NCBI GenBank assembly: GCA_965248435.1
Contig: OZ252100.1
Span: forward strand, 2,112,001-2,176,000
Length of the DNA: 64,000 nt
Source: Candidatus Latescibacterota bacterium
GTDB lineage: Bacteria; Latescibacterota; UBA2968; GCA-2709665
Direction: 5' to 3'
The notes under the pieces are model-generated. The model made no database searches. It saw only the letters and a list, made by a program, of their open reading frames with translations, and was not told where the DNA came from. Shown piece by piece: positions 475 to 4,302 of this stretch. Within the stretch, counting starts at the first letter, position 1; every line of letters begins with the position of its first letter. The translations under genes and the position numbers were made by a program.

Positions 475-3400
475 CTAATTCTCTACCTCTAGTCCCACAA
501 ATAACCGGCTGTATTCATCCGTGAGTGGATCAATTTCGCTCTTATGGGCTGCTCGGGCGAACACCACCCCCGGATTTTCGGACCGCCGTGCGCGCGCCAA
601 CACGTGATAGCCGCCAGGCGCACTCTGTGTCTCCAGGTCGCGATTGATCTCCGCCATCTCCACCAGCATGTTGGCCAACCCCCATCTAGCGCCAATCGTT
701 CGCGTCAGAATCTCCTCAGCCGCCAATCCTTCCCGAAATCCGTGCTTCAACGGGATCAATCCGCCCGTTACTGTCCGCGCCGCGCCCTGGGGGGCAACGG
801 TCTGCCTCAACTGTTGCCAGCTACCGCGAGCACCAGATGCACACAGCATGGCGAGGACGCCGAAAGCGTCATCTTCAAACGACCTGAACGCCGAAAGTTC
901 CGCGACCACTTCATCCGGATAGGCCTCCCAGGCATCCAGATCGTCTCCTTTCGGAGGCTCTGGAAGACTGAGCCGTGAGCCAACAAAGGCGCTCATCGAC
1001 CCACCCGTTCCGCTGGCGGCCTCAAACCCTTTCTGCCATAATCGCTCGGAAAGGTCCAGTGCTGCTTCTGCCCCGTCTCTTGCCATCACTTGTGCCATCA
1101 GGGTAATGATGGTGTTTTTGTCGATGAACTCTCCCTGTATCTCAATCGGCTCAGCGGCGATCGCCTCGATCTGCTTGCGTCCCTCTTCCGTTGTGCTCAA
1201 GTGAGCGAGTCCGAACAGGGCATCGCTCATCGGATGCATTCTACTGCGCGCAATCAAGCTCGGGTCTCGCTTCAAATGAGCGGCTGCGGTTAGAGCGTCT
1301 CTGGCCGACTGCTGCCCCGCCTCCGTGACGGGCACGAAGACTGCGACCTGATCGCCGTCAAAATCCAGATCCATCATCTTGCAGATCGCCGGCGGGACTC
1401 GAATCGCATCCCCCTCCGCTCGTTCGGGTCGGCAGGCGACAAAGCACGTGGGAGATATGGCCGGAATACGAAACAGAATCGCCCACATCTGCGACAACGT
1501 TTCATCCAGCGCCTTCTCTGCCTTTTTCGAGCGTTTCTCCACCTCGGACGTGCCCACTTTGCGTGCGGCAAACGGGCCGAACAGCGTCCAGGCCATCTCT
1601 TCAGGCAAACCCACTCGATCGAAGCGCATTCCTGGACCCGGCGCAGCGACAGCGCGGCCGCTGAACAGCGCCTGACTCTGAAACCGAAGGTCTTCTGGTG
1701 ACAGCAGTTCGTTATAAAAAGCCTTAACACGATCCGACAGCGTATCTGCAGCCCGTTCGATAAGCACGTCGGGCGCATCGTTCTCGATCATCTGAGCCAA
1801 ACGATCATTCGCCTCCCTTAAAGACGCATTTGCACTGGAATCGCTTTCGCCGACGTGGGTCAGTGGGTGTGCGGACAACCAGGGGTGGGGCACGGGACGG
1901 GCCAGCTTCAGCGTACCTTCCGGTTTTACCGAGAATGTGGCACCTTTCTCATTCAGCGAGACGACCACACCGTCAGAAGCCAACCGCTCCGTCAATCGCG
2001 AAAACACCGGCGCAGGGGGATCGACTTGACTCACATGCCCTTCGGCCAAACGATCGGCCAGGGTATCGGCATCCTTCCGGTCCACGGAACAGGTGTTGAA
2101 AAGATCCCGGATCACTTCAGCAGCCCCCCCCTCTTTCAGCGCAAGAAATTCCATCTCGCCCAGTGACTGAGCTTGCTCTCCGATTCGTGTCCCCGCGCGA
2201 ATCTTCAGCGCGGCCAAATGTTCCGTGCGCCCCCAATAGACCCATCCCGCTGTCGTTCGACGCTTCAGCGCTTCACCGCCTACCTTCAACAGTTCCATTC
2301 CCTCCTCGGGCAGACCATTCGCCTTCAATCGTCTTTGAATCTCCTCGTCTCTTGGAGCACAGAACGGCGGCACAATCACCGGCTGGCCCTCGACCTTCGC
2401 GATCCGTCCGACGACCGCCTCACGAACCTGCCCGATATTCATCCGTGAAGGCAGGCTGCACACGCTCACAATCAGCTCCACGGCAGTTCCATCCTGCAAG
2501 GCCGGCATCTCGGCATCCGGCAGGATCCGAGACACAACCCCCTTCGTGCCGTGGCGATTGCTGATCTTGTCTCCGACCGCGATCCGGTTTGGCAGCATCA
2601 TACGATTCGCAGCCGATTCACTGATCACAATGGCATCTTCGTGCGTATCGCCGTTCCAGGCCATAAACGCCGTGAGTAGATTGTAGCCTGTCCAGAAGTA
2701 GGGATAATCCGGCTCTAATCCAGTCTGCACGAGCGCGGGCTCAGATTCCGGTTCTGCCCCGTCGTATTGCGCTTGAAACTCCTTCCAAGCTCGAAAGTCG
2801 GCGCCTCTCGTGTAGTCGTTCCAGGCCTCCAGGTCGTCTCGCGGCATATCGGGTGAGGGCGGCCCCACCCATTGCCGCATCATGTTCACGCCCATCAATG
2901 CTCGGTTCGTATCATCGTGCTCCAGAAAGGGCACCATGGAGGCTCCTAACCCCAACCGCTTCTCGGGTGCTTCGTCTTCGATTACCAGCTTGCCGTCCCG
3001 GATCGCGGCCCCCTGCGCAACCTCCAGAATCCGATTGATGTTCGGCCCTTCCGCCGTGCAATACGGACAGACACGGCCCTCGTGTGAGGCATCCAATAGA
3101 TTGGTCGCATCCCTGGCTTGACCAAGGACGGGGATGAGCGTGATCCGCCGGAGATGGGTGTGCATGTCCAGCCAATTCGCTCTCTGCAGATACTGAGATG
3201 TAGATTGGTGCTCGAAGAATTCCCGAATCCAGTCCCCCAGCGGCATCCACGTCCTTACCGATTCCGCATCGTCCAGTCCCGGAGGGAAATCCGTCAACCT
3301 TTCAGCCAGAAAATCGAGCAGCTGTTCGCCCACACAGCGAATCTCGGCCTTCTCCAGATTCAACTCCGTCGGGACCGGAATCACGGTTCGAAACAATCCG

Positions 3401-3621
3401 CCGATCTCGAAACTGCCCCATTCATCCGGTTGAGGCACTTCCTCGAATGTCACAGCCACCCCATTCAGCAGCTCAAGGTGCAGGCGACAGGCATACGTCC
3501 CATCTGCTTCCACGCGATACCCGGCCAGCGGCAATCGATCGCCCAGGAGGCTAGGCAATCCATCCTGAATGAACGCATCCCACGAGGCCTTGTGCCAGGG
3601 CGCTCTCACGGAAATGGTCAT
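475..3621 (-). CDS. Miniaturised single-chain RNA polymerase beta-beta' fusion-like protein (~1048 aa)
   Basis: Ordered RpoB motifs: [102 protein letters not shown]. Then RpoC motifs: [60 protein letters not shown] at 3632-3628 precedes ATG 3621; the ORF track starts at 3771. Confidence 0.92.
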
Positions 3622-3661
3622 CTCATTCCTCCAATCTCGATCGTTTCTTGATGTCAAAACG

Positions 3662-4255
3662 CTAGGAAGACCCCGAAATCTTTGTCCATCCTTCCGCAAG
3701 TCGTTTGCGAGCGTGAAACAGACGTGATTTGACGGTCCCTTCCGGAATCTCCAATCGTCCGGCAACCTCATTCAGGGCCAGCTCACCGTCGTGCACCATT
3801 TGGAACACCTCTCGTTTCTCCTCGGGTAAATCGTTGATCAACTGCTGTAACATACGCCGCTGCTCCGACCGCTCGACCTCCACATCCGGTCCCAGCGATG
3901 CCCTGTCGATCATCCAGCCAGGGACCGGTCTTTCCTCATCATCGTCGTCGTGAAGCGTCGGTATCTCCAGCGGCTGTTCGCGCCGACGGCCTTTGCTCCT
4001 TAAATGATTCATCGCCAGGTTCTTCGCGATCCGAAACAGCCATGCCCTGAAAGGCCCCTGGCCTGACCATTGCACCGCGCGTGTCCATACCCTCAGGAAC
4101 ACCTCCTGCGTCAGGTCATCTGCGACGTCAGGGTCGCGCAGAATTTGACGCAAGTGCTCGATCACCTGAGCTTGGTATCGATCGAACAGGAGCGAGAAGG
4201 CCTCTGAATCCCGCTCAGTGGTGCGCCGCATCAAATCGGTATCCGACGGTGCCAA
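3662..4255 (-). CDS. ECF-family sigma-70 factor
   Basis: Region 2 ([24 protein letters not shown]) and region 4 ([33 protein letters not shown]). Likely TTG start at 4255 with AAGGGG SD 7 nt upstream; the ORF track starts at 4324. Confidence 0.93.
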
Positions 4256-4274
4256 AAGAGGTCCCCTTACGGAA

Positions 4275-4302
4275 TTGACACCGGCCAAGGCGTGTGGGTT
4301 CA
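4275..4302 (-). promoter_or_regulatory. Putative ECF-type promoter TGAACC-N17-GTCAA upstream of the ECF gene
   Basis: The -35 contains AAC and the -10 contains GTC, which are typical ECF signatures. It lies ~20 nt upstream of the TTG start. Confidence 0.45.

Follow-up and report, generated by a model that had tools for sequence, protein, structure and literature searches.

Gene content of the locus

The window analyzed here, a 64,000-nucleotide (nt) stretch of the genome of a Candidatus Latescibacterota bacterium (GenBank assembly GCA_965248435.1, contig OZ252100.1, forward-strand positions 2,112,001 to 2,176,000), carries near its left end two adjacent genes that are both read from the reverse strand. 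The upstream one codes for a sigma factor of the extracytoplasmic function (ECF) type and the downstream one for a single-chain protein of 1048 amino acids (aa), referred to below as the mini-polymerase, in which a condensed beta subunit of the RNA polymerase (RNAP) of bacteria is followed by a condensed beta' subunit. Textbook bacterial transcription uses an alpha2-beta-beta'-omega core of ∼400 kDa. The unit of an ECF sigma factor and a one-chain polymerase of ∼40% of the normal core size recurs in many uncultured bacteria. A putative enzyme that is kept by selection and has recognizable bacterial beta and beta' sequence, cut down to ∼40% and joined into a single chain, reveals what a polymerase can do without.

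A single unbroken open reading frame (ORF) spans positions 475 to 3771 of the reverse strand. The start common to all homologs is ATG 3621; it is preceded by the Shine-Dalgarno sequence GGAGG (3628-3632) and gives a product of 1048 aa. The stop codon of the ECF gene lies at 3662-3664, leaving a gap of 40 nt, and a terminator scan of this spacer (3622..3661) detected none. These positions agree with an earlier note on this DNA, written from the sequence alone, which had described a polymerase of ∼1050 aa encoded 40 nt past an ECF gene and equipped with its own Shine-Dalgarno sequence. The extent of 475-4302 given there for the whole module holds for the polymerase but has to be shortened at the ECF end. 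The ATG at 4303-4301, which had been read as the start of the ECF gene, lies partly within the conserved -35 hexamer TGAACC (4297-4302), and the ECF orthologs begin at the equivalent of TTG 4255 (M-A/T-P-S-D), which is preceded by the Shine-Dalgarno sequence AAGGGGA at 4262-4268. The ECF gene is therefore more likely to occupy 3662-4255 and to encode 197 aa from the TTG codon.

The same genome has a normal rpoB (1262 aa) and a normal rpoC (1363 aa) at C1:5.44 Mb, 3.3 Mb away from the module, and one mini-polymerase gene. Given that the genome has its own rpoB-rpoC pair, the mini-polymerase gene is an accessory one, as proposed in the earlier note, which had suggested looking for a separate normal rpoBC.

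Table 1. Features of the ECF-polymerase module (window positions)
Feature	Position	Strand	Basis
Mini RNA polymerase gene (1048 aa + stop), condensed beta then condensed beta'	475..3621	-	ORF, shared start, Pfam/NCBIfam, hhalign, model
Beta-like half, residues 1 to ∼560	1942..3621	-	BLASTP and hhalign to own RpoB, VIA-align
Beta active-site lysine motif GDK/RHGTKG, residues 350-361	2539..2574	-	Translation, family conservation
Beta'-like half, residues ∼574-1048	478..1902	-	hhalign and BLASTP to own RpoC
Two long helices, predicted clamp helices (coiled-coil), residues 596-613 and 618-639	1705..1836	-	Model, alignment
DLDFDGD, catalytic Mg-binding aspartate triad, residues 751-757	1351..1371	-	Translation
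32-residue helix, residues 968-999, aligned to the bridge-helix start	625..720	-	Model secondary structure, RpoC alignment
40-nt intergenic spacer with polymerase Shine-Dalgarno GGAGG (3628-3632)	3622..3661	-	Sequence
ECF sigma gene, 197 aa from TTG 4255 (probable start)	3662..4255	-	Pfam/NCBIfam, ortholog alignment, start inferred
Putative ECF-type operon promoter: -35 TGAACC (4297-4302), 14-nt spacer, -10-region GGTGTC (4277-4282)	4277..4302	-	Conserved motif, PWM (position weight matrix)

Derivation and anatomy of the mini-polymerase

The Pfam matches of the mini-polymerase follow the order of the subunits, with Rpb2_3 (residues 193-252) and Rpb2_6 (E value of 9.4e-38) preceding Rpb1_2 (E value of 1.4e-10), which agrees with the earlier observation of RpoB motifs followed by RpoC motifs in one uninterrupted frame. 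Three of the 11 Pfam domain families of the normal subunits (6 in the RpoB and 5 in the RpoC of this genome) are detectable in it. Matches to the NCBIfam equivalogs are partial and below the cut-offs, with 185.5 bits versus 801.15 for the rpoB model TIGR02013 and 115.2 versus 963.5 for the rpoC model TIGR02386; the same is true of the models for full-length RpoBC fusions, PRK14844 (184.5 bits versus 4632) and PRK09603 (180.4 versus 5372). Double-psi barrels of both types are recognizable, the beta-type barrel by Rpb2_6 and the GDK..RHGTKG and PSRMN motifs, and the beta'-type barrel by Rpb1_2 and the aspartate triad of DLDFDGD. By its sequence and modeled fold, the protein belongs to the two-barrel (multisubunit-type) RNA polymerase superfamily and is predicted to polymerize RNA.

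The catalytic motifs named in the earlier note are all present where it had placed them, namely, HED at residues 327-329, GDK/RHGTKG at 350-361, PSRMN at 391-395, EHL..K at 467-473, and DLDFDGD at 751-757. The first four presumably correspond to E813/D814, K1065/K1073, R1106, and H1237/K1242, respectively, of the Escherichia coli beta subunit, while the motif alignments themselves were checked solely against the RpoB and RpoC of this genome. Among 82 family members, Asp757 is found in all 82 and Asp753 and Asp755 in 81 each, so that the triad is complete in 80. In the beta half, Lys360, Arg393, and Arg356 are conserved in all 82 sequences, His468 in 81, and Lys352 in 79. The residue at position 751 (window 1369-1371) is less constant, with Asn in 48 members, Asp in 19, Glu in 14, and Gln in 1, and is Asp in the window. 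The Asn residue that occupies this position in the canonical NADFDGD motif helps to choose ribonucleotides over deoxyribonucleotides; given its variation in the family, sugar selectivity may differ.

Comparison with the RpoB of the same genome (33% identity over 224 residues; E value of 4.2e-53 in hhalign) reveals which parts of beta are left. In BLASTP, residues 94-207 align with RpoB residues 422-531 (the fork), 216-252 with 604-640, 312-335 with 749-772, and 346-549 with 1030-1249. Neither BLASTP nor profile comparison finds a counterpart of RpoB residues 773-1029, which include the flap, and most of the lobes are also deleted. The first ∼90 residues, judging from weak matches, may come from the N terminus of beta. 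The beta-like half thus retains an N-terminal piece, the fork (Rpb2_3), the beta double-psi barrel, and a C-terminal clamp piece.

The second half aligns with the RpoC of the same genome (E value of 4.1e-34 in hhalign), residues 574-989 matching RpoC residues 237-768 in hhalign and residues 605-991 matching 272-770 in BLASTP; neither method detects a counterpart of RpoC residues 1-236 or of those beyond ∼770. It retains a lid-like PVPHPWL segment, the clamp helices, the switch-2 SGR motif, the DFDGD barrel, and the start of the bridge helix, with a deletion where the rudder stretch would lie. The clamp helices align with RpoC residues ∼260-310 and include the conserved Asn605 (80 of 82 sequences), Arg607 (77 of 82), and Pro617 (82 of 82). 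The alignment of the bridge helix stops at RpoC residues ∼768-770, and the chain ends ∼50 residues past this helix. Judging from these alignments, the mini-polymerase has lost the flap, the rudder, most of the lobes, the zinc-binding and N-terminal part of the beta' clamp, the jaw, and most of the trigger loop.

An AlphaFold2 model based on the 82-sequence alignment has a mean predicted local distance difference test (pLDDT) score of 93.1 and a predicted template-modeling (pTM) score of 0.91, and its top Foldseek matches in the PDB are bacterial and plastid beta and beta' chains (E values of 6.5e-23 to 1e-18), in line with the fold that the earlier note had expected. In VIA-align, residues 1 to ∼515-560 of the model cover whole beta/Rpb2 chains with Z scores of 27.6-30.6 and root mean square deviations of 2.1-3.1 A over 440-523 residues; beta' chains did not appear among the 50 matches listed. 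Sequence identity in these superpositions is 31-34% to bacterial beta and 20-27% to its archaeal, eukaryotic, and viral counterparts. On the basis of the RpoB/RpoC alignments, the domain matches, and the structural matches, the mini-polymerase is a secondary reduction of bacterial beta and beta' and not an ancient stand-alone lineage.

Phyletic distribution and selection

The best 120 database homologs retrieved in a word-indexed search are 806-1068 aa long and 43-100% identical to the mini-polymerase, and all of them combine Rpb2_6 with Rpb1_2; all are either unnamed or annotated as "hypothetical." An exhaustive search of 50%-identity representatives yielded 456 proteins with E values of ≤1e-30. 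The top of this list consists of ∼90 full-length clusters (945-1101 aa, 33-59% identical), fragments follow, and long proteins of the canonical type enter only from ∼1e-67. Overall, family members are 33-65% identical. The family is under purifying selection: the polymerase has a ratio of nonsynonymous to synonymous substitution rates (dN/dS) of 0.11-0.17 in seven pairs, and the ECF gene has one of 0.06-0.24. The earlier note had named homologs of the same compact size, the dN/dS ratio, and reads that might reveal a chimeric assembly as ways to check its reading, and on each of these counts it was borne out. An artifact, either a chimera or a dead rpoBC remnant, can be given practically no weight, as the same architecture recurs in hundreds of independent assemblies, the frame is intact, and the protein is both selected and confidently folded. 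In addition, window positions 300-4700 are spanned unbroken and with 0 differences by each of the Logan contigs from four runs of a single sample, which may be the source.

Within the phylum of the window genome, the mini-polymerase is encoded in 64 of 168 genomes (E value of ≤1e-100), including 19 of the 52 high-quality ones, and in 16 of 49 genera. Its frequency varies among families: 2 of the 21 genomes of the window's own family have it, versus 25 of 31 and 31 of 76 in two others, and a genus-mate of the window genome (G040) has no such gene. The window copy is 64-65% identical to copies in another family versus 51% to the two of its own family, which hints at lateral transfer. Elsewhere, two carriers were found in a sample of 401 genomes from a phylum centered on a metagenome-assembled genome titled Chloroflexi (L028), and the source names of a few further members are Gemmatimonadota, Hydrogenedentes, and Poribacteria.

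Such a distribution raises the question of whether the module belongs to a phage, a plasmid, or a defense island and serves its transcription or anti-phage immunity, which would be compatible with either of the mechanisms considered below. The patchy occurrence and the closer relationship of the window copy to those of another family fit this idea, as do a putative serine-recombinase fragment 58 nt downstream of the polymerase gene, the frequent decayed copies, and the presence of two copies in one genome (G070). Nevertheless, it appears improbable. Among the viral contigs of IMG/VR, a C-terminal pattern of the polymerase gave 62 pattern matches with 0 relatives among them; the matches in 20 INPHARED phage records and 19 PLSDB plasmid records all fall short of 80% coverage of the protein; and the flanks consist of ordinary, clade-specific chromosomal genes, so that the conserved unit comprises two genes only. 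In PADLOC-DB 2.0, the polymerase matches 0 families and the ECF sigma factor has two marginal matches (E values of 0.009-0.01) to CARF models. Matches in PHROGs are limited to RNAP-subunit-like families.

Decayed modules were seen at L137, L188, L194-L196, L205/L156, and L213/L214 and in the protein P0285. At some of these loci, a deletion runs from the middle of the ECF gene into the polymerase gene and ends at residue ∼497, 758, 860, or 915; others have frameshifted ECF genes or internally deleted polymerase genes. With decayed modules this frequent, the unit is evidently often lost by deletion. The complete 8.4-Mb genome G070 has two diverged modules (C1:1427411-1430578 and 3368600-3371734), each with its own ECF gene, whose polymerases are 49% and 42% identical to that of the window.

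The ECF sigma factor and its linkage to the polymerase

The 197-aa protein matches Sigma70_r2 (E value of 6.1e-18) and Sigma70_r4_2 (E value of 1.1e-12) in Pfam and consists of regions 2 and 4 only, as is characteristic of group 4 sigma factors. It scores 108.9 bits against TIGR02937 (cut-off, 42.9), and no equivalog-level NCBIfam model is above its cut-off. In an alignment of 29 sequences, the linker between the sigma2 and sigma4 domains (RRRREQPLE ... VPGWMID..LGPD) is as conserved as the two domains themselves; Arg90 is invariant, and Arg91, Pro112, and Trp114 are each present in at least 90% of the sequences.

At 28 of the 30 best loci of the phylum, the polymerase gene is preceded on the same strand by an ECF ortholog, the exceptions being one contig end and one deletion; 7 of 7 further loci of the phylum also have one. 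A scan of metagenomes with a family-specific C-terminal motif of the polymerase gave 24 loci that include the polymerase N terminus and at least 900 nt of upstream sequence (∼19 distinct sequences), and the ECF gene is present at all 24, with a gap of 15-173 nt to the polymerase gene in 22 of them and of ∼2 kb in two. Both loci of the Chloroflexi-centered phylum have it as well, which extends the linkage across at least two phyla and settles in the affirmative the question, raised in the earlier note, of whether the ECF neighbor is conserved. The ECF orthologs are 42-72% identical to that of the window, and their identity falls alongside that of the polymerases.

Nothing besides this pair is conserved around the loci, and no anti-sigma gene is conserved beside it; the flanking genes are ordinary chromosomal genes that differ between clades. 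In genus g11 (L115-L121, L124, and L125), an ABC (ATP-binding cassette) exporter of ∼597 aa with transmembrane and ATPase parts is inserted between the ECF and polymerase genes at approximately nine loci. This exporter was rejected as a core part because the insertion is confined to one genus. In one subclade (which also includes L104, L105, L107, L136, and L137), a terminator hairpin precedes the ECF gene, and upstream of that hairpin are genes for two proteins, one of 345 aa that has a C4 zinc finger of the DksA/TraR type (PF01258; E value of 1.6e-9) and one of 315 aa that belongs to no known family. These two were likewise rejected as core parts, being limited to the one subclade; the window genome has no homolog of either.

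Several candidates for an ECF-polymerase fusion did not hold up. Four open frames of 1194-1244 aa (in G150, G159, G165, and G166) are chance upstream extensions, with the ECF sigma factor encoded in another frame. In P0285 (640 aa, on a 2145-nt contig; the one match of the search), a stretch of ∼60 unrelated residues takes the place of the sigma4 domain and continues into the polymerase frame, and the protein looks like the product of a decayed locus.

A conserved putative promoter and the apparent regulon

In all clades, the ECF gene is directly preceded by the motif T-GAACC-N14-GG(T/C)GTC (45 unique sites), after which a Shine-Dalgarno sequence and a TTG or ATG start codon follow within ∼20-35 nt. 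The motif adjoins the ECF start at 21 of 28 assessable metagenome loci. Two positions that the search did not demand are also conserved, T before GAAC in 45 of 45 sites and C before GG in 41 of 45. At the two loci with ∼2 kb between the genes (L200 and L201), a copy of the motif lies ∼86 nt upstream of the polymerase gene.

When the 5.67-Mb window genome was scanned with a PWM built from the 44 other sites, excluding that of the window, the window site ranked first with 28.0 bits, and the runners-up (20.8, 19.0, and 18.0 bits) were all inside long ORFs. The strict pattern TGAACY-N14-GGYGTC occurs 3 times in this genome versus 3.2 expected, and 3-9 times in five other carrier genomes versus 2-9 for a reversed-pattern control. 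TGAACC-N14-GGTGTC at 4277-4302 is proposed to be an autoregulatory ECF-type promoter. Given that the window site alone stands out in the PWM scan and that the genomes share no extra site, the regulon of the ECF sigma factor appears to be its own operon alone.

Possible modes of action

The reading favored here, to which a probability of roughly 0.55 is assigned, is that the ECF sigma factor and the single-chain polymerase form an autoregulated holoenzyme. The 1048-aa chain would be the product of a fusion of bacterial beta and beta' with massive deletions, in which both double-psi barrels and every catalytic residue were kept along with the fork, switch 2, the bridge helix, and the clamp helices. 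It would be an active DNA-dependent RNA polymerase that needs neither alpha nor omega for its assembly. Region 2 of the ECF sigma factor would dock on the retained clamp helices, giving a two-protein holoenzyme of ∼137 kDa that starts at the module promoter. By recognizing this promoter, the sigma factor would drive both itself and the polymerase gene in a positive autoregulatory loop. More speculatively, a holoenzyme without the flap might ignore hairpin terminators and read into the downstream DNA.

In normal RNAP, the beta' clamp helices are the main dock for sigma region 2. Their retention in a protein that has lost ∼60% of beta' and most of the clamp argues for a partnership with the ECF sigma factor, and so do the conserved linker of the latter, the lack of an anti-sigma factor, and the lack of any other apparent job for this sigma factor. 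Prediction of the complex of the two proteins gave a score of 0.41 (0.38, 0.42, and 0.41 in separate runs) versus 0.00 for the best of three controls, with a partner pLDDT of at least 67 and at least 48% of the contacts agreeing between runs. Of 80 solved complexes, 58 reach the mark that this score passes, as do 2 of 110 mismatched pairs; as custom alignments were used here, these counts hold only roughly. Passing scores of ≤0.60 were obtained for only 7 of the 80 solved complexes and for both of the passing mismatches. The prediction thus gives weak support to binding of the ECF sigma factor by the mini-polymerase, and the pass may reflect likeness to solved sigma-RNAP complexes.

Several observations weigh against such a holoenzyme, the weakness of that prediction among them. 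No homology to the trigger loop was found in residues 986-1048, whose local alignment with the RpoC of this genome scores 30 versus 33 ± 4 for shuffled sequences, so catalysis may be slow or unusual. In the normal holoenzyme, the tip of the beta flap positions sigma region 4; with the flap deleted, it is unclear how recognition of the -35 element stays in register. In the genome G143, a precise deletion has removed the ECF gene and the promoter but left the polymerase gene intact, and no ECF ortholog exists elsewhere in that genome. Neither the loci of the phylum nor a database search for longer proteins yielded a convincing natural fusion of the ECF sigma factor with the polymerase. Further, a search for strict or near-strict sites revealed no second conserved target in this genome or the five others, and if both proteins act only at their own promoter, the loop has no evident output. 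A polymerase-sigma pair that visibly targets only itself is a puzzle, for which read-through transcription, priming, and a conflict function are candidate outputs. Lastly, ordinary ECF promoters that are read by the normal core consist of GAAC, a spacing of about 18 nt, and GTC; the module promoter has the same geometry and fits transcription by the host core at least as well.

That last point leads to an alternative in which the host core, together with the ECF sigma factor, transcribes the operon, and the mini-polymerase works without a sigma factor on templates other than promoters, for instance on DNA that is single-stranded or nicked, on DNA ends, or on RNA. It might then be a primase-like or YonO-like enzyme that acts, e.g., in stress, DNA damage, or phage attack. 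This alternative would account for the ordinary architecture of the promoter, the ordinary sigma2/sigma4 make-up of the ECF protein, the loss of the flap tip that seats sigma4, and the polymerase without an ECF partner in G143, although the deletion in G143 may be a case of recent decay. The patchy occurrence and frequent decay of the module are also what is seen with accessory or conflict genes. YonO and other known polymerases with two barrels in a single chain act sigma-free (PMC5467207), and the single-chain enzymes of selfish elements that resemble RNA-dependent RNA polymerases (RdRPs) are proposed as primases in PMC3417536. Even so, this alternative, the main rival of the holoenzyme, seems less likely than the latter, as it leaves unexplained the retention of the clamp helices amid the loss of the clamp, the strong conservation of the ECF linker, and the upkeep of a dedicated one-promoter sigma factor for a single gene. 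The complex prediction, weak as it is, also points the other way.

A very improbable alternative is that the mini-polymerase is not an enzyme at all and serves as a sigma decoy or anti-sigma factor, holding the ECF protein on its clamp helices in a negative feedback. The kept clamp helices, the lack of a classical anti-sigma gene conserved beside the ECF gene, and the weak pass of the complex prediction (0.41 versus 0.00 for the best control, with the caveats given above) can all be cited for it. Yet the catalytic and substrate-contacting residues, which are far from the sigma-binding faces, are near-invariant (with Asp757, Lys360, and Arg393 in 82 of 82 sequences), the bridge helix is kept, and a chain of 1048 aa with a dN/dS of ∼0.15 along its length far exceeds what a decoy needs.

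The autoregulated holoenzyme can be taken one step further, tentatively and at odds clearly below even, to the smallest sigma-dependent machine of the cellular type. It would consist of a 115-kDa beta::beta' chain, a 22-kDa ECF sigma factor, and one private promoter; it would be autonomous, self-amplifying, and host-orthogonal, would work without alpha or omega, and would be blind to host terminators, regulators, and many polymerase inhibitors. This blindness is suggested by the lack of the flap, the rudder, the jaw, and the secondary-channel elements. If the ECF sigma factor does work with the mini-polymerase, the pair would show how little sigma-directed initiation needs. It would make the question of a minimal sigma-dependent RNAP testable, including the roles of the flap, rudder, clamp core, jaw, and trigger loop, and would offer a small tractable holoenzyme for structural biology and a compact host-orthogonal set of polymerase, sigma factor, and promoter for synthetic biology.

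Comparison with known systems

The mini-polymerase, judging from its sequence, clearly descends from bacterial RpoB and RpoC, with which it shares the motifs, the fork, both barrels, switch 2, the clamp helices, and the bridge helix. It differs from them in being one chain of 1048 aa instead of two (1262 and 1363 aa in this genome), in its location away from the rpoBC locus, and in its pairing with an ECF gene at nearly every assessable locus. The full-length beta::beta' fusions of the PRK09603 and PRK14844 types, presumably those of Helicobacter and Wolbachia, have the same order of subunits in one polypeptide. However, they are housekeeping enzymes of ∼2840-2890 aa, whereas the mini-polymerase is an accessory protein of 1048 aa.

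The nearest analogue in design is Orf6 (K2ORF6p) of the cytoplasmic linear killer plasmid pGKL2 of yeast, a single chain of ∼1000 aa in which, as in the mini-polymerase, a reduced second-largest subunit is followed by a reduced largest one. It is a 982-aa Rpb2::Rpb1 fusion with about half of the ancestral sequence deleted, as described in PMC2919709. Orf6 is of poxvirus-like origin, and its partners are another, small subunit, a capping enzyme, and a helicase, with no sigma factor among them (PMC6211774). By this description, Orf6 is set apart as a eukaryotic, plasmid-borne enzyme from the mini-polymerase, which is of the bacterial type, chromosomal, and sigma-linked.

YonO, the crAss-like and P23-45 polymerases, and the RdRP-like enzymes of selfish elements resemble the mini-polymerase in being single chains of ∼100 kDa with two double-psi barrels that are accessory to the host enzyme. 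To our knowledge, none of the YonO-like and RdRP-like single-chain enzymes has been reported with a cognate sigma factor. Their other distinguishing traits, distant similarity to multisubunit enzymes and carriage by prophages or selfish elements, were not found in the mini-polymerase, as far as the Pfam matches and the searches of IMG/VR, INPHARED, and PLSDB go. YonO of the Bacillus prophage SPbeta has very distant homology to the multisubunit RNAPs, as stated in PMC5467207, and this description sets it apart from the mini-polymerase, which matches the Pfam beta and beta' families with E values of 1e-38 and 1e-10.

Autoregulated ECF operons that combine a sigma factor with an anti-sigma factor share with the module a group 4 sigma factor, its own GAAC...GTC promoter, and a downstream partner gene, which in the module is presumably co-transcribed as well. 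In those operons, the partner is an anti-sigma factor, whereas here it is a polymerase homolog, and the apparent regulon here is the operon alone. None of six RNAP-related phrases (e.g., rpoB, Rpb2, and beta subunit) is present in the main text of the ECF re-classification paper (PMC7826278). The earlier note knew of no description of this architecture, and no compact bacterial beta::beta' protein linked to an ECF sigma factor was found in the searchable literature, although an earlier mention in supplements or in Iyer & Aravind 2012 is still conceivable. As far as this literature goes, the module seems to be undescribed.

In other unnamed protein clusters of the ESM Atlas, Rpb2_6 and Rpb1_2 occur together in one chain of 1221-1787 aa. 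The mini-polymerase may be one of several reduced beta::beta' lineages in metagenomes.

Neighboring genes

Downstream of the polymerase gene, starting 58 nt past its stop codon, lies a 147-aa ORF (window 3-416, reverse strand, running on as L004:11973-12416 on the same strand) in which "Recombinase" (PF07508; E value of 2.4e-10) is the only domain. From this match, it may be a fragment of a serine recombinase left as an integration scar. Just beyond the left end of the window (L004:10314-11759, reverse strand) is a gene for a second ECF-type sigma factor, which is fused to a long C-terminal region of ankyrin repeats (481 aa). Farther out (L004:2686-7130, reverse strand), a gene for a BlaI-type repressor comes before one for a BlaR1/M56-peptidase protein of 1349 aa, which has propeller repeats and, at its C terminus, a redoxin/AhpC-TSA domain; in genus g11, a BlaI/BlaR1-like pair is found directly downstream of the mini-polymerase gene. 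On the other side, divergent from the module (window 4679-6283, forward strand), is a gene for a 534-aa protein that has two ABC ATPase domains without a membrane domain and is thus ABC-F-like. This gene sits in a patch of low G+C content, 0.48-0.52 versus 0.57-0.63 around it.

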